Positions 1,041 to 64,000 of a stretch of 64,000 nucleotides of DNA are shown here, piece by piece. Numbering within the stretch: the stretch's first letter is position 1; each line of letters starts with the position of its first letter. The DNA comes from Isurus oxyrinchus (Eukaryota), in assembly GCA_026770705.1 (NCBI GenBank), contig JANJGN010000026.1, positions 3,162,001 through 3,226,000 of the forward strand, read 5' to 3'. The notes under the pieces were generated by a model. The model saw only the letters and a program-made list of their open reading frames with translations. It was not told the DNA's origin and searched no databases. The position numbers and the translations under genes were made by a program.

Positions 1041-3864
1041 ATGCTTGGGTCAGAAACTAGCCCTCTTGATGCATTTTATTATCGCATTCTGGCAGCTATT
1101 GGCATTTCCGGTGATTTAATACAGTGTTTTGATTTTCTATACAAATGTTACATTGTCTGTAGTATTTTTTTCACCACTGATACACCGACATGCATACAAA
1201 CAATTTGTTGAATGAAGATTTTCGAAGTTGGTTCATTATTGGGGGCCAAATTGATAATGATGGATTTCTGGTTTATAGCAGAATGGAAATAAATCTGCTG
1301 GGCCATTGTTTTTGAGACCAGTTCATGGTCTAACTGGGAGACTTGGAGCCAATCAGCGTCCCAATCAATGGAAATCGACTCAGGGTTTATATCAGAATTG
1401 GGAAGCTAGTGCCAGGCCGAGTAAAGGAGGTAGATGCATGGTTTAGATCAGCTTTAGGGAGCGAATGTTGGTTGGAGTTTTAAGGGGATAAGGACGTTCC
1501 TTAGATACGAATTAGAGAACAATTGCTCTCATGAGGCTATAGTGATGCACACGTCGTTCATATGTAAGTCTGATACAGGAGGAACATACGAATGTGTGAA
1601 GAAATGCATTGCAGCAGGAATAGGCTGTCAGGTGTCTTGACACTGCTCCACCATTCAATAACATAATGGCTGGTCTGATTGTAACCTCAACCCGACATTC
1701 CTGCCTACACCAATAATCTTTCATTCTCTTGCTTATCAAGTATCTATGTGCTCCTGCCTTAACGACATACAGTGCCTACTTCCACTGCCTTTTGTGGTGA
1801 CTCACGACACTCTGAGAGAAAAATCAAACCTGCTTACCTCTGTCTTAAATAAGTGACAACTTATTTTGTAAAGAGCGATACCTAGCTCTATGTTCTCCCC
1901 CCAGAGGATCAATCCTTTCCTCATCTAACCTGTCACTACCCCTTAGGATCTTATATATTTCAATCAAGTTGCTTCTTACTCCTCTGAATTCCTGCCAATA
2001 CAACCCTCACCTGTTCAACCAGTGCTCAGAAGACAAATTAGCCATTCCTACTATTAGTCTGGTAAACATTCTCTGAACTGCTTCCAATGCATTTACCTCT
2101 TTCCTTTAAAACAGAGACCAATACTAGACATTGTACTCCAAATGCAATCTCAACAATGCCATCTAGAAGTGAAGCGCAACCTCTCTACCATTCCTATCAA
2201 TTCATCTCACTATAAATGATATTACTTGGATGCTACCAAATTTACTCTCCGGAGCAAAAAGTAAATATAGTCCTTTATTTTTCAAATTTATACGTTATTT
2301 ACTATTAATTATGCAGTAATTGAAGAATATTATCTGCTTTCACAACTTCACGATTCAGGGGAGAACATGGTCAAGTTTATAAGAAGAGACCAGAGGCTCA
2401 AAGCATGGAGCAAGGATGTCAGGGATCCTCTCTCTGAAGAGCATTCAGAATCTGGGACTCAAGTCACCTGAAATACCTTCACAGTTATCAAGAATGTTCT
2501 TTAAAAGTATCAGAGCAAAAGAAAAAAAAATGCTTCTACCAGAGAGTCAGTAAGGAGAGTGGGCGAAGTTATCAACATTGAAAGAAGCAAAGGCAACATT
2601 AGGGCACAAAGAATGTGATATTGCAGTTTTAAAAGGAGGCAGGAGTTCTGCTTGCAGCCCGCTCAGTATTCACCCCTCAAACGACATTACAGTATAACTG
2701 GCCACTAATTTCATCTCACTCCAGTTCGTGGGATTTCAGTTCCAGTCGGCAACTTCAAAACATCTTAGAATGCATGATTGGGCTACTAACTAAAAAAGTA
2801 ATGATCTAAATGCAACCATGGTTCCAAATTTCTTAATCAGATTCTCAAACACACACACAGAGGTCGACAGTCGATCAAAATGTACAATAAAGAGCAAGTA
2901 CTTGGCAGTCGCCTATTAGTTGCATTAATTTTTGTTTCTTCAGCCTGTGAATAGCGAACCTAATGTCCTTTGTGATCCTGCACCGAGGCAAATACGGTCT
3001 CTCCACATGCATCACTCGTTACCTGGTGTCCATGGCAGTCACTGATCTCCTGGTTGTTATCACCGCTCAGCTGCTGAGTCCAATCAGTGGTATTTATCTG
3101 CCGGTCACTTTCCTGTCCACCACTCCCGCTTGCGGCATCAGCACGGTGCTCATCTATGCATTGTGAGACTGTACCATCTGGCTTACTGGCGCCTTCACTT
3201 TCGATTGATTTGTAGCCATTTGCTTCCAGAATATGAAAACAAATTATTGCACTGGAAAAACGACTCGTGTGGTCATATGCTCTGTTTGTGCCCTGGGTAC
3301 ATGGAAAAGCATCCCATAGAACTTTGTGTATGAGCCAGTCAATGTGATTGACCGATTGCCCTAGTTTTGTAGAATTAAGTTAGGCTTTTACCTTCATTTG
3401 CATGGACAGGCTTCAACTGGTTCGACTGTGTGTTAACGCCCACAACCCTGTTCCTCCTGGTTTTACTGCTGAATTCTCTGACTGTCAGAAACATTGTAGC
3501 CACCGACAGAGCCCGAAGGAAACTCCAGAGCCACAGCAATTGAAAGAGTGGGAGTGACACAGAGATGGAGAGCTAGAAAAAATCCATCATTTTACTCTTT
3601 ATTATATCAGGCAATTTCATCACATTATGGACCACCTATGTTGTGAATGTTATGTATGTGCGCATTACAGACTGTTCTTATTTCATAGGGTTTGTTTTCA
3701 AAATTGCTACATTTATTCTAGAAGAAAGTGGAAACATGCTACTACTTCTGAGCTGCTGCATCAACACGTGTACATATGCAGTGACACAGGCTAAGTTCAG
3801 GCAGGAGTTAAAGAATGCTCTGAAACAACCACCGTATCTCATTGTTCAATTGGTCAATAAGTGA
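1041..3864 (+). pseudogene. GPR139-like: Class A GPCR pseudogene, GPR139/GPR142-like shark-expanded family; exons 1041-1110 and 2955-3864
   Basis: Exon 1 encodes MLGSETSPLDAFYYRILAAIGIS with a GT donor at 1111. Exon 2 follows AG at 2953-2954 and reads ANLMSFVILHRGKYGLSTCITRYLVSMAVTDLLV...SCCINTCTYAVTQAKFRQEL, colinear with the intact copy at 28413. In-frame stops at 3164, 3206 (Arg of the DRx motif), 3317, 3362, 3541 and 3574, plus a 1-nt frameshift near 3392. Confidence 0.9.
1600..2230 (-). mobile_element. Degenerate CR1-type LINE 3' fragment in GPCR intron
   Basis: Reverse complement resembles the CR1 ORF2 C-terminus/3' UTR seen in better-preserved copies in this window. Confidence 0.55.
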
Positions 3865-4108: not shown

Positions 4109-4252
4109 NNNNNNNNNNNNNNNNNNNNNNNNNNNNNNNNNNNNNNNNNNNNNNNNNNNNNNNNNNNNNNNNNNNNNNNNNNNNNNNNNNNNNNNNNNNN
4201 NNNNNNNNNNNNNNNNNNNNNNNNNNNNNNNNNNNNNNNNNNNNNNNNNNNN
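4109..4252. other. Assembly gap (N run)
   Basis: Run of N. Confidence 1.
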
Positions 4253-8775: not shown

Positions 8776-11700
8776 AAAGCACACACACATGCACTCACGC
8801 ACACACAAAAACGCAGACACACTCACATGCACACACATACACAGAAAAACCTGCATGTGTACACACACATCCTCAGAGATGCATGCACATAAAAGCAGAT
8901 ACACATTGATACACACAGAAAAACACATATAATCACACATGCAAACACACACACACACACACATAGATAAACACACAGGCACATGCATACATGCACATGC
9001 AAGCACACACAAACAAAAATGCAGAACCATAGGCACAAACACACAAACACGCATACACAGAGACACACACACACAAATACGTGCATACAAACACACATAC
9101 ACAACTGACACACACATAAACAAGCATGCATAAACTCATACAGACCTGCACACAAACAAGCACACGCAAACAAATACAGGTACACACACTATCAAATATG
9201 CACACAGAGGCACACACACACAATTATGAACAAACACTCTCAAATGCACATGCATGCACACACATATTCATACACACACAAACACCCACATGCAAATGAG
9301 CATGCACATACGACACACATGCACGCACACACTCAAACACACAAATTGACATGTGCACACACACACACACACACACACAGACACACAAACTCATAGTCAC
9401 ATGCACACAAATACACATTCACACAGATATTCACTCACACACACACACAACCTCATACATTCAAGTGCGCACAAACATGCACACAAAATTACACAAATAT
9501 AAACACATACACACAGGCACAGGCACACATGTGCACGCAAGAACACACACGTACACATGCAGACTTAATCACAAACACGCACACATGCACACATATGCAT
9601 ATACACAGACACATACACACAAACACTCACATCCAGATGTACAACACATGGGCATAATTATTCACATGCACACAGGCACGCATGCACACAAATACACACA
9701 CAAAGATGCGCACACACACAGATGTGCACACAGACATAGACACACAAATAAACGAACACAGGAACAATCACACCACAGGAACACACAGGCATAAACCGAT
9801 AGTCACACATGAACAAACACTCTCAAACGCACACACAACACACACATACACACACAGCAGCACATGCACACATGCACAAACACAAGCACTCAAACAAACA
9901 CACAAACACACACATAAACACACAAATGCACACACATAGCCCCCCGGCACATACATGCACACTAATAGAAAGTAAAACACCCTCATAGATGCACACACAA
10001 ACAGCATGAACGCACACTTATTCACACACACCCAACACACAAACACAAACACACAAATCTACATGCACACCATACACATATAAATATTAACATACACACA
10101 GGAACTCATACAAGCAAACACACACAAAAAGACACACATACACATACACACAAATACATGAACGCACGAACAAACATGCAGAAACACACACATACATACA
10201 CACACGGGCAGACACACAGACACACACAGCAGGACATGCACACGTACAAGCAAACAAACATACAAAAGCACATACACACACAAATGCACATACATATACA
10301 CTCACAGAAAGTCAAACACCCTCTCACATGCACAAACAAAGAGCATGCATGCAAACTTTTTCCCACACACACTGGCATGCATACACATGAATACACCCAC
10401 GTACACACAGATATGCACACACAGGCAGAGCCAACACACAAAAACACAGACAAACAAACATGCGAATGCACAGACTCACACGCATGTACATGCACAAACA
10501 CACACACACACACACAAACACACACGCAAACACACACATAGATACGTGCACACAGACATACCTGCACAGCTGACACACAAACAAACAAGCACACACAAAC
10601 TCATACAGAGATAAGCACACAAACAAATACACATAAATGCATACAGACACACACAAGTGCACACATGTGCACACATACATATCCTATACATATGTATACA
10701 GACACAGAAGGACAAACACATACACATATGCACACACACACAAACGCAATTGCACATACACATGCACAAACACAGAGATACATGTACACAGGCACACATG
10801 CACAACTGACACACACACAAAACAGCACGCACTAACTCATACAGACACACAAAGACCAAAGAAGCACGCACAAACACAAGCACGCAAACACACACACACA
10901 CACAAATATGCACAAAGAGGCTCACACACACACAATTGCGAACAAATGTGCTCAAATGCACACATGCGCACACACATTTTCCTACACACACAAACACACA
11001 CACAAATTTACGCACGCATATGCACACACATGCACGAACACACTCAAACAACCAATCCACATGCACCTGCAGACCCCCCCACACACACAAAAACACACAC
11101 ACAGATACGTGCACATAGACATACATGCACAGCTGACACACACAAACAAGCACACGCAAACTCATACAGACACAAGCACACAAACAAGCACGCATAAATG
11201 CATGAAGACACACGCACACAAATGCACACATGCGCACACATACACACCCTGTACATACTTATATAGACACAGAAGGACAAACACACACACATTTGCACAC
11301 AAACATGCATGAACACACACATATTCATAATCACACAGACATGCCAACACACGAAAACACACACACAGATATGCAAACACAGGCACACCCAACACACACG
11401 AACAAAAATGCAGAAACACCGACACAAACACACACACATATGCACACACACACAGACACAGTCGCGCATACACATGCACAAACACACAAAAACATGTACA
11501 CAGGCATACATGCACAACTGACACACACACAAAACAGTGCGCACAAACTCATACAGACACAAAGACCAAACAAGCATGCACAAGCACAAGCACACAAAAC
11601 ACACACACACACATACACACACACATATACACACACACACAAATACACACAAACGCACTCACACACACACAATTGCAAACGAACATGCTCAAATGCACGC

Positions 11701-14700
11701 ATGCGCACACACATTTTCCTACACACACAAACAAATTCATACTTGCATACACACACACGTGCATGAACACACTCAAACAAACAAATCCACATGCACCTGC
11801 AGACCCACACACGCACACACATATTCACATGCATAGAGACAGGCAAGTACACATTGAACATACACACAGATACCCATGGACAGGTAAACATGCATACACG
11901 CACACAATCACACAACCTCATACATTCATGCACACTCTAACACATACACAAGCACACACATACATACAAACACATAAACACACAGGCACATGCAGACATC
12001 AACACAAACATGCACACACATATGCACACATATGCATACCGACACACACAGGCACACAAACACACACAAACGCACATGCAGAAACACACACATCCACATG
12101 CACACCACACACATATCAATATTAACATACACACAGGAACACATACACGGAAATACACACGCAAAGATACACACACACATATGCACAAATACACAAACAC
12201 AAGAAGAAACATGCAGAAACACACACAAACACACACACACAAACACATACACACACACAGGCACACAAAGGCACAAAGAGACAGGCACACATGAACAAAC
12301 ACACTCAAGCACACACGCACATGGGCACACACATACAGACACAGCAGTACATGCACATGCACAAGCAAACAAAGATGCACAAAAACACATACACACACAA
12401 ATGCACATACATGCACACTCACCGAAAGTCAAACGCCCTCTCACATGCACACACAAGGAGGATGCATGCAAACTTATTCTCACACACCCTGTCATGCATG
12501 CACATTAATACACACAAGTATGCACAGAAATGCACACACAGGCAGACGCAAAACACAAACACACACACAAACAAACATGCGAATGCATAGACTCACACAC
12601 ATGTGCACACACGAACACACACATACACACCCACACACAAACACACGCATAGATATGTGCACACAGACATTCATGCACAGCTGACGCACACAAACAAGCA
12701 CACACAAAGTCATACAGACACAATCACACAAACAAGCACACATAAATGCAGGTAGACACACGCACACAAATGCACACATGCACACACATACACACCCTTT
12801 ACATATGTACATAGACACAGATGGACAAACACACACATTCGCACACAAACATGCATACACACACACATGTTCATAATCACACAGACATGCCAACACACAA
12901 ATACACACACACACACACAGATATGGAAACACAGGCACACCCAACACACACGAACAAAAATGCAGAAACACCGACACAAACACACATACGTATGCACACA
13001 CACACAGATGCAATTGCACATACACACACACAAACACACAGATACATGTACACAGGCATACATGCACAGCTGACACACACACAAAACAGCGCACACTAAC
13101 TCATACAGACACACAAAGACCAAACATTCATGCACAAACACAAGCACACAAAACACATACACACACACACACACACATACACACGAATACACACAAACTG
13201 GCTCACACACACACAATTGCGAACAAACATGCTCAATTGCACATATGTGCACACACATTTTCCTACAGACACAAAGACACACACAAATTCACACATGCAT
13301 GTGCACACACATGCACGAACACACTCAAACAAACAAATCCACATGCACCTGCAGACCCACACACACACACATATTCACGTGCATAGAGACACATACACAC
13401 AGATACCCATGGACAGGCAAACATGCATACATGCACACACACACACACACACACACAACCTCATACATGCATGCACATGCTAACACACACACAAGCTCAC
13501 ACATACAAACACACACACACACACAAGCACATGCAGACATAAACACAAACACGCATACACACATGCACACATATGCATACAGACACACACAGGCACACAA
13601 GCACACAAAAACACAAACATACACATGCACATCACAAACGTATAAATATTAACAAACACACAGGCACACATAAACGCAAATACATGCACAAAGAAGCACA
13701 CACATACAGACGCACAAATACACGAACTGACGAACAAACACAGAGAAACATGCACACACATACACATACACACAGCAGCACATGCACACATGCAGATCCA
13801 GAAGTACACAATCACACACAGCACAAATGCACAAAAATGCACACTCACAGAAAGTCAAACACCCTCTCACATGCACAAAGAGCATGCATTCACACTTATT
13901 CACACACACATGCACGCATACACACGAATACACACACGTACACACAGATATGCACACATAGGCACACCCAACACACCAACACTCACACACAAACAAATAT
14001 ATGTTAACACAGACAAACGCACGCACAAACTGACATGCACACACGGACAAACACACACACACATGCACACACGCACACAAATGCAGAAACATTACATGCA
14101 AACAAACATCCACACACACACTCAGGCACATGCACATGGAAGCACACATACAAACACACACATACAGGTATACACACACAAACATACACACACATAGGTA
14201 CACACCCACATACATGCACACCCTACACACAAGCACACACACACATATCCACACACACACAGACACGCATAAATACATACACACAGGGATATGCACACAC
14301 AGGCATACTCAACACACAAACACACGCACACAAACAAACATTCATAAACACACACACACACACACACATACACTTGCACACCCAGATATATGCACAGAGG
14401 TGCAAATGCACAACTGACATACACACAAACAAGCACTCACAAACTCATACAGACACACGCACACAAACAAACATGCAGAAACTCATACAGACAGATACAC
14501 ACAAATGCACACACATATGCACCCTGCACATGCATACACAGACACAGGAATAGATATGCATTCACACATGCACACATAAACACTCGTGCACTCACACATA
14601 TTCACACACACAGAGACATGCTTCACACATACAGATATGCACACACAGGCAGCCCAACACATACNNNNNNNNNNNNNNNNNNNNNNNNNNNNNNNNNNNN

Positions 14701-15048
14701 NNNNNNNNNNNNNNNNNNNNNNNNNNNNNNNNNNNNNNNNNNNNNNNNNNNNNNNNNNNNNNNNNNNNNNNNNNNNNNNNNNNNNNNNNNNNNNNNNNNN
14801 NNNNNNNNNNNNNNNNNNNNNNGCATGCACAACTGACACACAGAAACAGTCATGCACAAATTCATACAGACACACAAACACACAAACAATCACGCACAAA
14901 GACATGCACACAGGCATGTACACAAACACACAAATACAAACAGATAGGCACACACACAGACACACGCACAATTGCAAACAAACATGCTCAAATGTGCATA
15001 TGTACAAACGTACATATTCATACACACAGAAATGCACACAAAAAATTC

Positions 15049-15079
<31 letters not shown>

Positions 15080-16367
15080 TACATACACACACACAGGCAC
15101 AAATTACAGGCACAAATGAACAAAAACGCTCAAACACATGCGAACATGCCCACATATACAATCAAACACAAACACAAGAACACGCACACCATTACATGCA
15201 CACACATACACAGTCAAACTCATGCACATATACACATTCTCAAGGGCACATACACAACACATACACACAGACACAGATACGCACAAACACACATACACAC
15301 AGGCACAAACTGACATGTACACAAGAACAAATGCACTCACGCACACACACACAAACGTACATACACAAATGCATTCACACTCACACGCACAGACAAATGC
15401 ACACGAAATCAGATGCACATACATACAAATGCACACACACACAACCTGACACATGCATGCACAAAAAAGCATACACACAGCGGCACATGCATACATGCAC
15501 GTACAAGCACACACACAAACACATAAACACACACACACACACAAACACATGCAGATATGCACACACAGAAAGACGGACACACTCAAATGTGCACACACAA
15601 ACACACATGAACACACACATGTTCACACACACGCAGAAACACATAAACACAAATGCATATACACCCACACAAACACACACACATATGCGTGCACATACAC
15701 ACACAGTTATATGCACACACAGGCATACACATGCACGTACCAACACACTGATACGTGCACACAGGCACACATGCACAACTGACAAACACACAAACAAGCA
15801 GTCCCAAATTCAACAATAACACAGCCACACACATAAGCATACACAGGCACACACAGGCATAAACAGACACTCGATGACATACAGACACTCAAAAACACGC
15901 TCAAGCACACGCACACACAACCTCACACACGCATGAACATACAAACATACACACTGAAACACGCACATACATGCATACAAACACACAAACACCCAGGCAC
16001 ATGCACACTTGCATCCGCAAGCCAACACACAAAACACGCACACACATACATGCAGACATACACACAAAAATACACAGATATACACACATGCAAATTCATG
16101 CACACAACCCCGCAAATACATGCACAAACACACACGCACCCAATCACTCACAAACAGAAACACACACACAGACATTCACATGCACACACTCATGCACAAT
16201 CAATTTCACATGCATTCACACACACAGAGACAAACTCAAACACACACATAAACAGACACGCACACACATGCAAACACAGACAGATGAACACTCAAACATG
16301 CATGCACACACATATTCACATGCAGACAGACACAGGTACACACAAATGCACACACACAAATACAAAG

Positions 16368-16406
<39 letters not shown>

Positions 16407-19060
16407 TGTGAATATATCGGCACACAAGCTCACACACACAGGAACAAACATGCAGAAAAAGACACACATGCACACATATGCATACACAATCAATAACATT
16501 TACAGATACAATCATACACATAGGGATACACAAGCACAGACACACCCACTCACGCAAAAACATATAGGCAACGTGCACACACATGCGCACACACAAACAT
16601 AGATGCACTCAAACACACATGCACACATATGCAAATACACCAGCACATTTTTACACACATATACATGCATGCTCATACACACACTCACAGGCAGAGCACA
16701 CAGATAAACATGCACATGCACAAAACACATAGGTACACACAGATACACACACAAACGCAAACACACACAGGTACACATAAATGCACACACACCCGCACAC
16801 ACTCACTCACAGACACACACACGCACAAACCATACACACATGCAAACAAACACAAAGCACATGCACATACAAGCACACACACAAGCTCACAAACAGACAC
16901 GCGGCACATAACACATGCGCACTTACAGGAAGTCAAACACCCTCACACATGCACACACAAACACGCATGCACACACACATTCACTCGCACACAGACATGA
17001 ATACACACAAACACACACACATGCTTGCACACAGAAATGCATGCACAGGCACACCCAACACACAAACTAACACAGACCAACAAAAATGCAGAAACACAAA
17101 GACACAATCACGCACAAACTGACATGCACAGGTGAAAAAACACGCTCAACACACGCACACACATGCACAAAAACGCAGACACACTCACATGCACACACAA
17201 ACGCACATACACACACAGGTATACACACACACCATCAGGCATGCATGCACACACAAGCACACGCACACACTGATACTCACACATACAAACACATAGATAT
17301 ATATATGTAAACACACACACACTCACACACACACACACACAAACACACGCACAATCGGACAGTCACACATGCACAAAACGCTCACACACACGTGCACACA
17401 CACAACACAAACGTACACACACACACAAATTCACATGCAGTCACTTGCATCCACATAGACTTGCACAAACACACACATCCTGATACATGCATGCGCACAC
17501 AAACACACACACAGTGGCATATTCGCACATACACATGCAAGCACACACACAAACACATAAACACACATACACAAGTGCTCATATGCAAATACATATGGTG
17601 CACGCACATGCATGCACACACACACAGAAAGACAAACACTCAAANNNNNNNNNNNNNNNNNNNNNNNNNNNNNNNNNNNNNNNNNNNNNNNNNNNNNNNN
17701 NNNNNNNNNNNNNNNNNNNNNNNNNNNNNNNNNNNNNNNNNNNNNNNNNNNNNNNNNNNNNNNNNNNNNNNNNNNNNNTGCATACACATGCACTCAAAAA
17801 CATACAGATAAGTGCACACAGACACACATGCACAACAGACACACACACAAACAAGCACTCACAAACTCATACAGAAACACAGACACACACGCACAGGCAT
17901 ACACAGGCACTAACTGATACACTCAAAATCACGCTCAAACACTCACATATGTGCACACACATACACACACACACGCACACACAGGCATACACAAGCACTA
18001 AGTGACATGCACACACTCAAAAAACAGTCTCAAACACACACACACGCACACACAAACTGACACACGCATGAACACACAAACACACACACTCAAACGCGCT
18101 AATAAACACATAAAAACAGACAGACACACAGAAACAAACACACACAACCAGGCACATGAATACTTGAACGCAGAAGCAAACACATTCCACGCACACACTT
18201 ATGTATGCAGACATACACACACAAACGCACACAGACACACGCACAAACACATGCACACACACACAAATACACAGACATGCACACACACAGAAATTTACAT
18301 GCACACCTCCGCAAATGCATGCACAAACACAGGCACATCCAAGCACTCACAAACACAAACACACAGGCATTCACATGCACACACGCACATGCACAATCAA
18401 ACTCACACACATGTACAAACACAGACACAGAGAAACACAAACACACACATACACAGACACACAGCCACATGCAAACACTCGCACATGAACACACAAACAT
18501 GTATGCATACACATATTCACCTGCAGACAGGCACACACACAAACACACACACACACACAAATGCACACATATGCAGATGTGCACACACCGTCACACAAGC
18601 TCACAAGCACAGGAACAAGCTTGCAGAAACACACACACATGCACACATATGCAAAAACACACACGCATACACATACACACACGCAGACATGCACACACCG
18701 GCACACAACCTCACACACACAGGAACAAACACGCTGAAACACACACACACACAAACACACAAGCACACATACACACACACACAAGAACAAACATGCCAAA
18801 ACTTTTACACAAACATGATCACACAGATATGCACACTTAGGTGCACACAGGCACAAACTGACATGCGTATGTGAACAAACATGCACAAAAACACATGTAC
18901 ACACATCTATTCACAAACACATACACACATATTCACTCACACAAACAGACCTTCACACGTGCATGCACACACAATCACTCACACACAGTCACACACACAC
19001 ATATTCACACACATACACACACACGCACACACACACACGCAGACACACTCACATACACAG
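8776..19060. repeat. ~10.3-kb complex CA-rich (TG on - strand) satellite with internal higher-order duplications
   Basis: Continuous degenerate (CA)n with CATG/CAAA variants and recurring unique anchor motifs; contains N gaps 14665-14822 and 17645-17778. Confidence 0.95.
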
Positions 19061-27828: not shown

Positions 27829-29320
27829 ATGCATGCTCGTGTAAACGGTGTCGTGTTTGCCATCTACTACCCAGTATTTGCAGCTTTTGCTGTTTCAGGC
27901 AAGGGACCACAGTTCAGTGTGTATTGCATAAGTCTCGAGCTACTTACATTTTGCATAAAATATTACACACTGCATTGATTGTACATCTCATTGTTACTTT
28001 GAGGATTTCATTGTGCAAGTTTCTAGTTCAAAGTGTTGTTCCACCATGAAAACGTGTCTCCAAGCAATGTTTACTATACTAATCTTTAGTTTAGGTTATT
28101 TATGATTGGCAAGTAAGGGAGGTGTTTCTGTGCAAGGCTTTGCATCAGGTAAATAGTTGCTGCTGATGTATTAAAAATAGCTATACATTGTTTCATTGTT
28201 CATTGTTTCAGGCATTAATGTGCTGGGGAGGCTTTACAAGGGTCATTTATTGCCCATATATTTTAAGCCATGATTGTTGCAGCTAGGTTGCGACAGAAGG
28301 ATACTTATTTTAAAAAAATATCTGCTTAAGTTAACACTCTTCTAGGAACTGATGAATTCGTTGGACCAGTAAGGTGTAATTCAGCACTAATCCCTTTTTC
28401 TCTTCTTTCCAGGCAACTTGGTGACAATTATGATCCTGTCCCGAGGAAAGTGTGGCCTCTCTGGATGTATCACGCGTTACCTGGTATCTATGGCAGTGTC
28501 AGACCTGCTGGTCATTATCACTGGGGTAATCTTGAACAGGATACGTGGTATTTATTTCCCAGTTAGTCTTCTAAGCACCACTCCAGCCTGCAGTGCAATC
28601 GCTGTCCTGATTTATGCAGCCAGAAACAGTTCAGTCTGGTTGACAGTCGCTTTCACCTTCGATCGTTGTGTTGTCATTTGTTACCAAAATCTGAAAAACA
28701 AATTTTGCACAGAGAAAACAGCGGCTGTGGTTGTAGGGACCGTCTGTGCTTTCAGCTGTATTAAAAACGTACCCAGTTATTTTATCTATGAACCACTGTT
28801 TGTAATGAACAATGTGCCATGGTTTTGCAACATCAAGTCGATATATTATGCTTCAACTGGCTGGGCAGCATATGACTGGCTGGACCGTATTCTTACCCCA
28901 TGTGTACCTTTCGTTCTAATTATTATATTCAATGTTGTGACCATCAGGCACATTCTAGTAGCCAACACAGCCCGCAAGAGACTCCGGGCCCAGAGTGATG
29001 GAAAGAATCTGAGTGACCCCGAGATGGAGAGCCGGAGAAAGTCTATCATTTTACTGCTGTCTATATCAGGCAGCTTCATCCTGTTCTGGATGGTATATGT
29101 TATAAATTTGGTATATGTGCGAGTTACAAACAGTAAGTATTCAGCGGGCACCAATTTAACTGACCCAAGGTCCATTCTGCAAGAAAGCGGATATATGCTA
29201 CAACTGTTCAGCTGTTGCACAAACACGTGTATTTATGCAGGGACACAGAGTAAATTCAGAGCGGAGTTAGTGAATGCTGCAAAATCTCCATTTAAACTCA
29301 TCCCAAAAATGATTAAATAG
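27829..29320 (+). CDS. GPR139-like: Class A (rhodopsin-like) orphan GPCR, GPR139/GPR142-like shark-expanded family; join(27829..27898,28413..29320), 325 aa
   Basis: Exon 1 MHARVNGVVFAIYYPVFAAFAVS splices in phase 1 (CAG|GCAAG donor, ttctttccAG acceptor) to GNLVTIMILSRGKCGLS. Seven hydrophobic segments; TM1 GN, TM2 MAVSDL, TM3 FTFDRC, TM6 FILFW, TM7 NTCIY, helix 8 SKFRAEL; open to TAG at 29318-29320. Family member, not claimed to be the GPR139 ortholog. Confidence 0.88.
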
Positions 29321-34700: not shown

Positions 34701-37700
34701 GGATTCTTGCAGATGAGTCACCCTGCTGCCACTTTACATGTTGCCAGCCAAGCAGGAAACTTTATCCTGGCTCCTTGCTCCAGTTAATCCACCTCCCTGA
34801 TCCCCATGTGCCTCCAATTCAGATCTCGTGTGCATTGTCAATTTTCTTTCTTTCATGGGATGTCGCTCCAAAATTTCCATTTAACTTATACCTTTCCAGG
34901 CCATGGTGGAAGGCAGTTTAAACTCAGACAAATTGGTGTGGATCTGGAGTCTCATGTCGCCCAAGACATGTAAGGATCTCAGATTTCCTTCCTGAAGCGT
35001 CATTAGTGAACTATATCTTTTTAACGGCAATCAATTATAGTTTTCTGGTCACTATTAGCAAAGCTATCATTAATATTACTAGTTCATTGACATCACCACT
35101 ATGCCACCATCTTGCTATATCCACTAATAGAGTATGTGACTTCAGCTCTCCGAACATTAAGCTCCAGAAATGTATTATTAACTCTGTACACTACTTTAAC
35201 CTATCTCTGCTACTTCAAGAAGTGCTTTAAAGCAACGTTATTTTGCAAAGCTTTGGGTTAGTTGACTTGATAGGATCTTACTTGACTTGGCATCAGATGT
35301 TGTCTGATTTTGCTCCTATGAAGCTCGCACGATTAATTTGCTGTAAAACTGGAACTTCTTGTTGTGCAGTGAACTATCGATATCTGCAAATTCCAAAGGT
35401 CGCATTCGGAGATATGCATTGACTTTGAAATTATCCTCGTACTTTTTTTTTAAGTTACCTCTTGTATCATTGATATTTTCCTGCCTTCTAAGTCAGATGA
35501 TTGTGGGTTCGATCTCCTTTCCACAATTCTGCCATTTGATCGAGGCTCATAATGCACCCTAACAGTCTGAGGGGTGCTGAAGTCTCAGTGTTGCTGGGTT
35601 TTAATTGAGTGGCTTATTTTTGGCCCGATCCGAGAGTTCAGGTGCATGTTGAAGATTCCATGGAGAATTGCAGGAGCAGTGATATATCCCAGAGTCTATT
35701 AAATGTATTCTGGCCAGAAGCAGCATTGTTTAGACTGGCTTCGTATTTGCTCATTTTATTTTCTTTATTGGTATTATTTTAGCTTAATTGGATATGGAAT
35801 CAGACAATTTAAAGTGTAATTATTTCCCTGTGGAGTGTATGGGAAATACTGACTCTGTGAAAGGTGACCTATGAAGCAGAGTATGTCTTTCTTGCCATGA
35901 TCGTCAACCTGGCTAAACTCACACAATTTAGCCACTGTCACAGCACAGAGAGAGCAGGATCTGTCCGTATATCCAATGTGAAGCAAAGGCACCGAGAGTT
36001 GATTATTCAAAGAGAATCTCAGTCTGCAGTAAATCAACTGATCGGATTTGTGTCACCAATAATGGCACTTTCATTTTTCCCCCTTCCTAAGTGTATCAGG
36101 CCACTATTCTGTGCAGCCTGTTGAAAAAAAACGCTGAAGCTAATGGCGAGGTTTGAAAGATTGTTAGTAGGCCTCCTTACCAAGCAGTCCACAAACAATA
36201 ATTACACTCTGAAAAAGAACCATTAAAGTTTCAATGGGCAAAAAAAAAAATACATGACAATCAAGTATCATTGCATGGTTTACCGACTGGACAGTGCAAT
36301 CTGGCGTAGCTTTCTTTTGTACCTGGTGGTTCTGAGTGAAGCACAGGGCAGGAGTCCAACAATTCATTAATCGTTGCTATGCCATCTCAGCCATGTCATG
36401 GAAAAATGTATTTGTGGTCATGTCAGAGAATATGTGTCTAGGTGATGTACCTGCCATGACTGACTGACACAGAGTTAAGCAAATCTTGCTCAGTCTTGGA
36501 ACAGCCAATAGGTGGAGCTGCTCTTTTGTGCTGTGGGATCGTTCCATGCTGGGAAACGTCTCGCTGAGTGAAGGATGCAGTCTCCCAATGGACCGGGTAG
36601 CTATCCATGCTGTGAGCTCACAGAGTAGTAGTCAGTCCGTCACAGAAGGAGGCTATTCGGCCCATGATTCCTGCAGCGAGTCTTGTTGAAGTAGTCATCT
36701 GTGTATATTATCCTCAATAGCCCTTCTTTGTACACACTCAGCTGCACCAAGTTATTGAATGCAATTTATATCCATGCTTCGCACAGTCTAAATCTTTTAA
36801 TTATCCCAGCATGGTTCACTTGCGATGACTCAAGCCCAGATGAACAGCATAAATTGCTGCTCTTGCTTAAGTGAAGATCTTTCCATCGGCTGCCTGATCC
36901 AACAATACACCTTCAGCTCCTATTGATGAAAGGCGCATGGCCGGGTATAGTTCAGGATAGAGGAGGTATAGCAGGATCAACACTCACTTTCCAATTGCAA
37001 AATTGAATGATCTTGGTTAGTTGTCAGGAATATGATATTGTTCAATTCAATGAGCTCGCGTACACAAGAAGCAAGCATTCCAGGATAACAGTGAATTTTT
37101 TACATGACAAAGTTTACTCTGTTGTAGGACAGTTACTCGTAAAATTATGATGCTTCTGAATTCACTAAAGCCACATGCGCTCCATCCAACTAGAAATACC
37201 AGCCAGGGTGCGACAGGTTGCAGAATTAGGGACTTGATAGTAGTGACACCTTCAGGGGGTTGAGGGAATTGTTAATGTCATTTTTAATCCAGCCGCTCAC
37301 AGTTCTAACCCACAGGGTAACCACCCCTATGGTGTTACTATGGCAGAATGCTGGAGCTGCCATAGGAAATATACGATACAATGTATTACAGATTTCACAG
37401 AATTTTAATAACCAAATAAACAGAGAATTGTAACCATAATGAATCACAATAGTCGTAGCGAGCCTGATGGGATGTCAATGCTGACATCATCAATAGCAAC
37501 AAAATCTGATGACAGTGGGGAAAGGCTAACGTCGCTGTTCAGATTATATTGTCAATATATATGCACGTTAACTGGTTAAAATACTGTGGAATCATTTGTT
37601 TGTACCGGCGACTAACCTTTTCTGTAAAATGTCAATAACTTCTGAAAGGCAAACATAAACCGCGCCAATCAGGCACAGCTGAATCTTGAGCTAAAATGTG

Positions 37701-38155
37701 ACTCCGCCTTCATTTTCCTGATGTTCTCTTAGCTTAGTTTAGCCTGTGAACTGCAAGTGATTCGAGCCTGAGTCCACCCTTCCAATCAGATTGGGGCCGA
37801 GGTCACCTTCTGAATAGATTTTTGATTATTTTGTTGTTATCGGCTCCTAAAAAGCAATGAAAATAACTTCAACCACGTGTGATTGATTCTCTTTTTTCCC
37901 CCCATGGAAACTTGTAAATGATGTACACGTCATCATTTAAAAGCGCTCCTCTGTCCTAGGTGCCCTGTTTGGCCACGATTGTCATCACCCAACAAGTATC
38001 CCTATGTTTTTTTGAAAATTACTTGAGTCGTCTTTTCATGTTCCATTATTTTGACTTCCAATGCAATGTACCCCTGCCAACTGCCGTTGTTGTGTAACAT
38101 CTAGCCTATATTTAACATGTTCTCAATAATAACAAACTCCATCTATTGATTCTAG

Positions 38156-38313
38156 AAACCCCTCAAATAATGGAAGGTCTGGAAGACCAATTGGTAGAGG
38201 AAGGCGGATCAGAAAACTTCGACGAGGATGTAGGCACTGCATCAACTGTAGTCACTTTCGTCAACTTGTTTATTCTCAGTATGATGTATAGCTCATACTT
38301 GACAGTCCTTAGG
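38156..38313 (+). CDS. Immunoglobulin heavy-chain transmembrane exon (TM1), isolated; IgNAR/IgW-like
   Basis: Phase-1 acceptor (ttctAG) and phase-0 donor (AGG|GTAATG), as in IgH TM1 exons. Acidic spacer (E)TPQIMEGLEDQLVEEGGSENFDED followed by ASTVVTFVNLFILSMMYSSYLTVLR, matching the antigen-receptor TM (CART) pattern TF..LF.LS..YS...T. Confidence 0.8.
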
Positions 38314-38387
38314 GTAATGACAGCTCACAATAGTACAGTGAAATTGTGTAACTTTATTCAGAACTTCACTTGGCACTCCCCCAGACA

Positions 38388-60929: not shown

Positions 60930-61570
60930 AGTACTAATGTAGCGTCCATCAACAGCCTAAGGCGCTTCCCCAGTGCTGTGTTAAATAAAGAATGACAGCA
61001 AGACACATAAGGAAACACTGGGTCAGATTACCAAAAGCTTCGTCAAACAGGTAGTTTTAATTAACATCTTAAACAAGGAGAAAACAAGACAGAAAGGCGG
61101 AGAATTGTAACCATTGCATCTCAGAGTTTTTGACTCGGGTGGTTGATGGCACGGTCACCAATTGTGGAGCAATTAAAGTTGGGAGCTTTCAAGGGGCCAG
61201 AAAAAAAAGGAGAAATCTTGGAGGGTTTTGGGGTTGGAGGAGAGTACAGATGTAGAAAGGGGCAAGGCTATGAGGATTATGACAACAAGGATTAGAATAA
61301 TACATCAAAGGTTGCTTGGCCAGAATTAAATGTCAGTTAGTGAGCAAAGGGGTGATGGGGGAATGGGACTTGCTGTGAGATAAGGCGAGGGCGCCAGAGT
61401 TTTATGTGACCTCAGGTTTACAGTGGGTAGAATTTGGGAGAAATGAGTGGGTTGAAATAATCGAATCTAGAGTTAATGAAGGCAAGGATGAAATGTTCAG
61501 CACAAGTTGAGTAGAGACAGGGGCGAAGTCGAATGATGTTTTGGCGTGGGAAAAGTGCATCTTACAGATA
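60930..61570 (-). mobile_element. L2-type LINE remnant immediately upstream of the Ig promoter
   Basis: Reverse complement resembles the L2 3' region at 56390-56690. Confidence 0.45.
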
Positions 61571-61640
61571 CACACTGTGGATATTAGAGTTATAACCTCG
61601 CCTATCGCAAACCGTCGGCAACACACAAATGGTCAATCAC

Positions 61641-61682
61641 TCCGCCCTATGCAAATTCGCCAAGCCTTTTGAGGTTTATAAG
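61641..61682 (+). promoter_or_regulatory. Ig V promoter: GC box, octamer ATGCAAAT (61649-61656), TATA-like TTTATAAG (61675-61682)
   Basis: Perfect octamer ~18 bp upstream of the TATA-like box and ~120 bp upstream of the leader ATG. Confidence 0.75.
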
Positions 61683-61774
61683 GCCGGTGTTCTGCTACAC
61701 ACCATTACATACAACAGTTGGTGTTGAGGTCGAGATTTCGTTCTGCTTATGTTTTCCACATTGGTGAAGAAACA

Positions 61775-61817
61775 ATGAATATTTTCTGCCTTTCGCTGTT
61801 CTTAACCAGGTTACCAA
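61775..61817 (+). CDS. IgNAR: IgNAR leader exon (MNIFCLSLFLTRLP), splice donor mutated to TT
   Basis: Matches the IgNAR-type leader MNIF.LS..L..LP; phase-1 junction is followed by TTAAG instead of GTAAG at 61818. Confidence 0.8.
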
Positions 61818-61944
61818 TTAAGCGCTTTTCATGGAAAAACATGTGTTAACTGGATACAGTTTGCATTTAGATTTTTCTATTGTTTCAGACCTGCAATATG
61901 CATTTATTTATTAAATGTAACATTTATTTTTTTTAACCATTCAG

Positions 61945-62216
61945 GTGCCTTCAGTATATGGGTGGACCAAACACCAAGAACGGCACCAAAAATGATAGGC
62001 GAATCCCTGACCATCAACTGCGTCCTAAAGGATCCTAGCTTTGGTTTGTGCTCTACAGCATGGTGCCACAAAAACCCAAGAACAACAGATTGGGAATGGA
62101 TAACCATTGGCGGCCGATATGTTGAATCAGACAACAAGGGAAGCAATTCCTTTTCCCTGCGAATCAATGGCCTGACAGTTGAACACAGTGTCATGTTTCA
62201 CTGCAGAGCTCGAGAG
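61945..62216 (+). CDS. IgNAR: IgNAR variable (VNAR) germline segment, unrearranged; possibly pseudogenic
   Basis: After the ttcAG acceptor: AFS-IWVDQTPRTAPKMIGESLTINCVLKDPSFGLCSTAWCHKNPRTTDWEWITIGGRYVESDNKGSNSFSLRINGLTVEHSVMFHCRARE. C22, W36 and C83 at VNAR positions; short C'/C'' region (no CDR2) typical of VNAR. Confidence 0.93.
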
Positions 62217-62254
62217 CACAATAATGAGTTTGAGCTTCCATTCATACAAGAACA
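62217..62254 (+). other. V 3' recombination signal sequence (22-bp spacer)
   Basis: CACAATA-22-ACAAGAACA. Confidence 0.85.
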
Positions 62255-62451
62255 CCCCCGAATCTTCTGTTGAATGAAATACGAATTGTTTCGCTCTTTT
62301 CCCTCAAACTTTCATTTTGCAGGTATTGATTCCCATCTGAGACAGGTGGAGATGTGTAAATAACTGGTGACAGTTTCAGGATCAGAAATCCCCGCATTGA
62401 GAAAGTGGCTTTAAAGTGCGGTTGTTCAATTTACAGTCTCGCAAGTGAACC

Positions 62452-62534
62452 TCTTTGTGCACTGGGCTGTACCACTGTGTGCATACTATAACAGCCACAG
62501 CAATCGAGAAGACGGTTCCTGTAATACACAAACT
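62452..62534 (+). other. IgNAR D1 segment (62480-62495, tgcatactataacagc) with 12-bp 5' RSS and 23-bp 3' RSS
   Basis: tctttgtgc-12-CACTGTG [D] CACAGCA-23-ACACAAACT. Confidence 0.85.
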
Positions 62535-62731
62535 ACCAGCAGAGATTCTGTTTTAAAAGTGACAACAAAGTCACCAATTCTCAACGAGGTTAGGAGCAAG
62601 TTATTGGTTACCCGGTGATTTGGAGGGGTAACACGTTTCGTTATAAAAGGCTGGAAAAAAACAACATTGTGATGTGTATACAGATTGTGGTTTACGTCAA
62701 AACTGAGAGCCTTGTATTACTGCACGTGCGA

Positions 62732-62809
62732 CCTTTTTGCATTGATCCCTATGATTGTGTACCTGGCGGACCACAGTGATGAATCCTGGATACTCATAAT
62801 ACATAAACT
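62732..62809 (+). other. IgNAR D2 segment (62760-62771, tacctggcggac) with 12-bp 5' RSS and 22-bp 3' RSS
   Basis: cctttttgc-12-GATTGTG [D] CACAGTG-22-ACATAAACT. Confidence 0.85.
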
Positions 62810-63124
62810 TCCCCACACCTCTTAAGGCAAAGCGAACAGATGTCACTTTCTGAGTGGCTAAGATATTTCATGGCTAAATATTTATTATCTTCGTCAGACA
62901 GTGCTTGGTAAATTAAAGGCTTTTTCTCTAATTATTTAGGTGGTAATTTTATACATTTTATAAATGTCATCTTCATAATAGAACACTTTAGATTCACCAG
63001 GACTTTTCGAGTGGGTGAGAATTATAGGCACCTAAGGGATCCTAACATATAGGCAACGATTTGCTACATTTTTCAATCAATTTCGTGAATATTTGAAGGA
63101 TTTTTGTAAAGTTTTGGACAATGG

Positions 63125-63192
63125 ATTTATTGTGTTGGGGTGAATTGATGTGTACCTGCGATGACACAGTGCCTCGGGCCACAGCACAAACC
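63125..63192 (+). other. IgNAR D3 segment (63153-63164, tacctgcgatga) with 12-bp RSS on both sides
   Basis: atttattgt-12-TGATGTG [D] CACAGTG-12-GCACAAACC. Confidence 0.85.
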
Positions 63193-63506
63193 TCCCCGAC
63201 AGTTATTTATTTTACTACTCATGAATGTGGCTGAATAATCTACTTTCCTACACTTGATCTCTCGCTGCACAGAGGTTGAAATCAGTTCCTGATCGGCTTT
63301 TGGTTGGAACTATCCGCATTCCCAGTAACATTAAAATACTGGATTGTCTTTTTCAGTGTTACAAAAATTCACATCGCTCATACGAACTATCGGCACGGAC
63401 AGAAACTGACAGAAAATAAAGATTTATTAATGAATAAAAAGTATACAAGATGTCCTTGCATCCGTCTTGCTTTGAAATATTTATTACCAAATTATTCTTC
63501 GTTGAC

Positions 63507-63593
63507 ACTTTTTGAACTGGGCTGACTGGGAGATGACTGACTGTGACTATAACTACTACGATGAGTTTGGCACTGTGCTGACCGTGAACTCAG
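63507..63593 (+). other. IgNAR J segment (63546-63593, YNYYDEFGTVLTVNS) with 23-bp RSS and phase-1 GT donor
   Basis: actttttga-23-GACTGTG, then ac tat aac tac tac gat gag ttt ggc act gtg ctg acc gtg aac tca g|GTAAGT. Confidence 0.88.
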
Positions 63594-64000
63594 GTAAGTG
63601 ACCTTTCTTTCTACTTTCTCACTACGATTTTGTACATATAGGATAAGAAGAATCAATGTTCTCATTAAAATCGGCTGAAGCAGGTTTGTGATGGTCGCAG
63701 CTCCTTTCCAAGACCTGATTAGATTGACTGTCAGTCAACTTCGAACGGGCTTAGAACTTTGTTATTTCAAAAGATATTTTGTTCGAAAATATAGTGAAAT
63801 TGGTTTTAAGTATATAACTTATTTGTCACATAACACTTAAGATAGTTATTAAGAAAGATGGTGAATGTTTTAATACTTAAAACGGAACCAAATTTGCAAA
63901 GTTCCACCTTAATGATTTGTTCCTTCACAAATTAGAGAGATAACATTTCTAGTGCGAAAAAATTAATACAATTTTTCAGTGAGGAATGGCTTCTGAAAGC

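Follow-up and report, generated by a model that had tools for sequence, protein, structure and literature searches.

The cassette in this stretch of DNA is a real, unrearranged germline IgNAR minicluster with the order L-V-D1-D2-D3-J-C1-C5-secretory tail, and in this haplotype it is very probably a pseudogene. Its leader splice donor is broken, its constant region carries a stop codon and three frameshifts, and the TM exon has been deleted; because of the defective splice signal, the stop, the frameshifts and the missing membrane anchor, a dead gene is the most likely reading. The window, i.e. the whole stretch of 64,000 nucleotides, corresponds to C26:3162001-3226000 (contig JANJGN010000026.1 of Isurus oxyrinchus), and 160 kb from V onward were examined. 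Coordinates without a contig name refer to the window.

Gene segments and identity of the cluster

An Ig promoter, consisting of the octamer ATGCAAAT (61649) and a TATA-like box (about 61677), was located at 61649..61682 (+) and is kept in all ten paralogous clusters of the assembly. The leader exon (61775..61817, +) starts with the ATG at 61775 and comprises 14 codons and one base, ending in phase 1. The VNAR exon (61945..62216, +) has an open frame with both canonical cysteines and a CDR1 cysteine (type II-like). It is of the VNAR type, being short and devoid of CDR2 strands. The best 30 of 80 PDB matches were VNARs, the top one being VNAR 3B4 (E 1e-28), and the best two alignments were ungapped.

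The V exon is followed by its RSS, CACAATA-22-ACAAGAACA, with a 22 spacer (62217..62254). D1 (62480-62495) lies between a 12-RSS and a 23-RSS (62452..62534), D2 (62760-62771) between a 12-RSS with the heptamer CACAATC and a 22-RSS (62732..62809), and D3 (63153-63164) between a 12-RSS with the heptamer CACATCA and a second 12-RSS (63125..63192). A 23-RSS (63507-63545) precedes J (63546-63593), which has an intact GT donor at 63594 (63507..63595); all these elements are on the + strand. The RSSs were scored with the generally known consensus. The preliminary description, made from the letters of the window, had listed V-22, 12-D1-23, 12-D2-22, 12-D3-12 and 23-J, and all segments and spacers were found as claimed, as was the essential CAC in 8/8 heptamers. 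The same three D cores and spacers were present in all ten paralogues, nine of which also share the D3 5' heptamer CACATCA.

In 5000 dinucleotide shuffles of 62261-63500, scanned with the same loose thresholds as the real D region, the three-D-core pattern did not occur once (4793 shuffles gave no core, 196 one and 11 two). A scan of 41.5 kb of the window upstream, also with loose thresholds, gave two D cores. Candidates for extra or fossil D segments at 62630-62700 and 63370-63407 were rejected, as they held no D core and were not conserved as RSSs. Pre-joined Ds were found in none of the 11 clusters of the assembly. The 12/23 logic permits the skips V-D2, V-D3 and D1-D3, as had been proposed. 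The further statement that the spacers force D3 before J holds for deletional joins and fails for inversional joins to the 5' 12-RSSs, which are permitted on paper.

The C exons were mapped with named shark IgNAR chains of basking shark (P0001), Triakis (P0002) and Heterodontus (P0003). C1-C5 and the secretory tail lie outside the window at C26:3237354-3246610, 12-21 kb past J, and the prediction of C exons beyond base 64000 was borne out. The exons C1, C2, C3 and C4 start at C26 positions 3237354, 3241243, 3241654 and 3245452, respectively, and C5 with the secretory tail occupies C26:3246226-3246610. The nearest named protein to the cluster is that of basking shark, and C1-C5 with the tail were 83-90% identical to this model (P0001). 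The best PDB match of C2 was the IgNAR structure 4Q9B (E 4e-39). The five C exons and the secretory tail with a terminal cysteine, which define IgNAR membership, are present but broken. Together with the segments and spacers, these exons confirm the IgNAR layout and the 12/23 logic put forward earlier.

A NAR-TCR cassette, in which the V(D)J would splice to a supporting TCR-delta V, is an exceedingly improbable reading. The NAR-TCR V is described as related to VNAR (PMC3457774), and many distant V segments lie on the same contig as the window cluster. However, the next exons past J are IgNAR C1-C5 with a secretory tail, no other V exon was matched in the 160 kb from V onward, and the distant V segments (33-43% identity) are at least 20 Mb away. 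In a NAR-TCR, J would be followed by a leaderless supporting TCR-delta V within the TCR alpha/delta locus, whereas here the next Ig exon is IgNAR C1. The preliminary description had named a TCR-delta V/C downstream, or a lack of C exons, as grounds for giving it up; both were looked for, and IgNAR C1-C5 were found instead. Since C1-C5 and the secretory tail sit past J, the cluster is assigned to IgNAR and not to NAR-TCR.

About 105 distant V segments of 33-43% identity, probably TCR alpha/delta V, were counted on C26 (23-40 Mb), C140, C151, C152, C210, C242 and C301. Many of them share contig C26 with two IgNAR clusters, and the occurrence of IgNAR and many distant V on one contig fits the antigen receptor complex as outlined in PMC12227049.

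Lesions of the window copy

The leader splice donor of the window copy is TT at 61818..61819 (+), whereas GT is found in 10/10 paralogues. The cassette, previously called complete, is so in its segments and not in its function. Without splicing, the reading frame of the leader ends at codon 25. The only cryptic donor nearby, at 61810, was rejected because it is in the wrong phase and leads to a stop after about 30 codons.

The constant region was compared with paralogue a. The second cysteine is lost in C1 (TGC>TAT) and C4 (TGT>AGT). In C3, the core tryptophan is replaced by a stop through two substitutions in one codon (TGG>TAA), and an 8-bp deletion was also detected. C4 and C5 each carry a +1 insertion. 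Past C5 there is a 1.6-kb inversion, next to which the window copy lacks 1.0 kb of paralogue sequence with the TM exon in it. No TM exon of the window cluster turned up in the 160 kb that start with V or in a search of the genome, so that the inspection for C1-C5, secretory and TM exons proposed earlier succeeded for all but the last. The features of a functional cluster, i.e. a TM exon after C5, a spliceable leader and open C exons, were not present.

Changes were also determined in the V and J. The framework substitutions WFR>WCH, EDS>EHS and YC>HC affect residues that are unchanged in 10/10 paralogues, and the J motif is E-F-G compared with G-x-G in all ten. At position 5, the V RSS heptamer (CACAATA) and the D2 5' heptamer (CACAATC) differ from the CACAGTA and CACAGTC of 10/10 paralogues. 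The V branch length in the V tree was 0.33-0.38, ten times the median of 0.033. The ratio of synonymous to non-synonymous private changes in C1-C5 was 9:21 for the window copy vs 12:28 for the intact cluster h, and this comparison, based on three paralogues, did not separate the two. The window copy retains its promoter, the open V frame, the RSSs and the C splice sites, which counts against a pseudogene. The working cassette that the preliminary description implied is not supported, as the leader, C3, C4, C5 and TM are disabled and the V and J lack residues kept by 10/10 paralogues.

Read-derived contigs of four runs (X1, X5, X6 and X18; 24 listed) were compared with 61560-63700. The contigs of X1 equalled the window without differences at 61560-61791, 61762-62127, 62101-62396, 62531-62793, 62881-63137 and 63485-63670, and one of them, 366 bp long and free of differences, bears out the T of the leader donor. 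X1 is probably the assembly's own sample and hence not independent. That the cluster is functional and its lesions are assembly errors is very improbable. The read contigs covered the V-D-J region, so the C-region and TM lesions are taken from the assembly sequence, and three of them are small indels. In contrast, the X1 contigs agree with six stretches, TT included; among the lesions are an inversion, the loss of 1 kb and base substitutions, two of which hit the same codon; and the ten paralogues, assembled together with the window copy, are free of them.

The CDR3 of IgNAR is described as the product of as many as four joins that RAG makes inside a single cluster (PMC4622739, PMC5192425). 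RAG could still cut the window cassette, since all eight CAC are kept. The joined V(D)J could not splice to the leader, translation of the C region would not get past C3, and a B-cell receptor would lack its membrane anchor without a TM. For want of a spliced leader, a full C region and a membrane form, no B cell would be selected on the window cluster and no clone would be founded by it; the ten intact-looking clusters would supply the IgNAR repertoire. In nurse shark IgM pseudogenes, rearrangement is reported as not seen by Southern blot (PMC2435157).

An orphan IgNAR TM exon with an open frame (38155-38316) was located, together with 3.6 kb of its upstream intron, at 34733..38361 (+) and is 75% like those of the paralogues. 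It lies 23 kb upstream of the leader and therefore cannot serve the window cluster, and no C5 was found before it in the window or in 60 kb further upstream. A circular permutation, in which the upstream TM would be the cluster's own, was rejected, because the orphan is 75% like the paralogues compared with 86-88% for the cluster, and because the cluster's own intron flanks remain downstream. A second TM-like exon lies about 18.5 kb past the TM exon of each intact cluster (e.g. C42:6169328 and C26:719554) as part of an old tandem duplication, about 85% alike. Its use as an alternative membrane tail was rejected due to a frameshift or stop in 11/11 copies.

Ahead of the orphan TM exon, at 28391-29317 (+), there is a GPCR-like ORF of the rhodopsin family (Pfam 7tm_1), and a broken GPCR copy lies at about 2954-3412. 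The GPCR family is very large (1793 candidates in the genome) and its members flank many IgNAR clusters. At about 8800-19000, a degenerate CA-rich simple repeat of about 10 kb with strong strand skew yields spurious long ORFs and RSS-like matches. Four N runs are present in the window, at 4109, 5085, 14665 and 17645.

Paralogous clusters and possible allelic variation

DNA searches of the assembly gave 11 V regions and, at corresponding positions, the same number of C2 exons; both counts are lower bounds. The same 11 V were obtained above 67% identity in a protein search, the next match being at 43%. Besides the window copy there are clusters at C42:6123k, C42:1055k, C38:12760k, C38:13944k, C38:7644k, C38:2931k, C38:13278k, C100:788k, C26:671k and C126:836k. 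All ten are fully split with the same layout and a GT leader donor; their C1-C5 are free of stops and keep both cysteines as well as the AG/GT sites, and about 5 kb past C5 an open TM exon follows. By identity over V-D-J, seven of them group together (94-99.6%), as do two others (98.4%), and one stands by itself. The window copy is 87-88% identical to nine of the ten and 75% to the remaining one. Some of the ten may be alleles or assembly duplicates. At C42:6224047-6250000, at least 26 kb are 99.97% identical to the 3' part of cluster C42:6123k; this copy contains both TM exons and no C exons, and represents a very recent duplication or an assembly artefact.

The window copy, being dead, is a poor VNAR scaffold source, and the proposal of a new one is not supported for it. 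The other ten clusters, which have the same layout and open exons, are the scaffold sources instead. Two adjacent cysteines were found in the CDR1 of three of them (L012, L015 and L017). The ten intact-looking germline clusters of three lineages (seven, two and one), with differing CDR1 cysteines, are the more useful by-product of the analysis and could be drawn on to design primers for VNAR libraries from this shark group.

Run X5, which has the same species label and comes from another sample and study, showed 0 differences from the window at 61956-62071, 62141-62286 and 62257-62396. It also holds further contigs that are about 97% alike, one of which (178 bp) has G at 61818, i.e. a GT donor; the paralogues differ from the window by 32-44 substitutions over the X5 contig span. 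In organism B, G at 61818 was found in one contig of run X6, and run X18 gave a 1343-bp unrearranged contig about 96% alike. The latter spans V-D1-D2-D3 (window 62117-63494), and as the run is guessed to be RNA, it would be a germline transcript or DNA carry-over. As contigs of X5 and organism B carry G, the donor lesion arose after the locus itself and is perhaps not fixed. The one GT-donor contig of the other sample suggests that there may be a sister haplotype with less damage.

It is accordingly conceivable, although unlikely, that the locus is polymorphic, with a dead haplotype here and an intact allele or a very close sister copy working in other individuals. The window-identical X5 contigs beside those of about 97%, compared with the far more different paralogues, agree with such a locus, as do the GT and the unrearranged contig of organism B and the basking shark P0001, in which GPCR, TM, V, C1-C5 and TM follow each other with open frames. 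However, the GT evidence in X5 is one contig of depth 9 with the site 10 letters from the contig end, and the run might represent a pool or bear a wrong label. The eight separate lesions, spread over 27 kb, point to a long decay rather than a fresh allele, the contigs of the GT-donor sister type cover the V-D-J region only, and trees do not place P0001 as sister to the window copy. That the locus is dying, with a fully disabled haplotype segregating beside a working sister haplotype, is quite doubtful; if true, an entire antibody cluster would be polymorphic for presence or absence in a shark with about ten intact IgNAR clusters.

Comparison with known systems

The IgNAR system is known and its layout is textbook; the window copy is a further, dead cluster, one example of cluster decay. 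In openly accessible main texts, no account was found of IgNAR clusters in the germline of mackerel sharks, nor of a duplication of IgNAR TM exons.

As far as the cited accounts go, the window copy resembles the canonical minicluster of nurse shark (PMC4622739, PMC5192425) and bamboo shark IgNAR1 (PMC8692893) in V, three D, J, five C and the secretory tail. The white-spotted bamboo shark clusters are given as V-3D-J-5C-Sec-Tm with 12-, 22- and 23-bp spacers (PMC8692893). The likeness to IgNAR1 extends to the single-domain V and to the spacer lengths of 12, 22 and 23, which come from a figure legend and are matched as lengths and not by order. In contrast to the canonical minicluster, the leader donor, C3, C4 and C5 are disabled and the TM exon is deleted. 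The pre-joined D reported for bamboo shark IgNAR2/5/6 and nurse shark type III is absent from the window cluster. The NAR-TCR, a doubly rearranging TCR delta (PMC3457774, PMC12227049), has a rearranging V of the VNAR type in common with it, and differs by the supporting V-delta downstream in place of IgNAR C exons.

Basking shark LOC144673922 (P0001) has the same order of GPCR, orphan TM, V and C1-C5 as the window. Its identity to the window copy is 76% in V, beside the 83-90% in the C exons, and its GPCR part is 89% identical to that of the window compared with 57-67% for the five other copies scored. We infer that P0001 is a probable orthologue of the window cluster, while the trees did not resolve it as orthologue or sister. 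The IgNAR part of P0001 has an uninterrupted frame and a TM exon at its end, whereas the window copy is broken and without TM. P0001 is an automatic model, named 'uncharacterized protein', that fuses the GPCR to an unrearranged IgNAR; loci of this kind are overlooked or fused by ORF tracks and automatic models, and the present analysis is of use for their annotation.

Four IgNAR clusters are reported for nurse shark (PMC4622739), and three of the seven of bamboo shark are described as incomplete (PMC8692893). The approximately ten intact-looking clusters found here are more than twice the four complete ones that these accounts give for either species. Dead or incomplete IgH clusters are likewise described among the bamboo shark IgNAR (3/7) and the nurse shark IgM groups 6-8 and G2C (PMC2435157), and dead clusters among working ones are, by these accounts, a known product of cluster birth and death. 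Unlike those dead clusters, the window copy keeps the whole V-D-J with its eight RSSs, but is broken in the leader, the C region and the TM.
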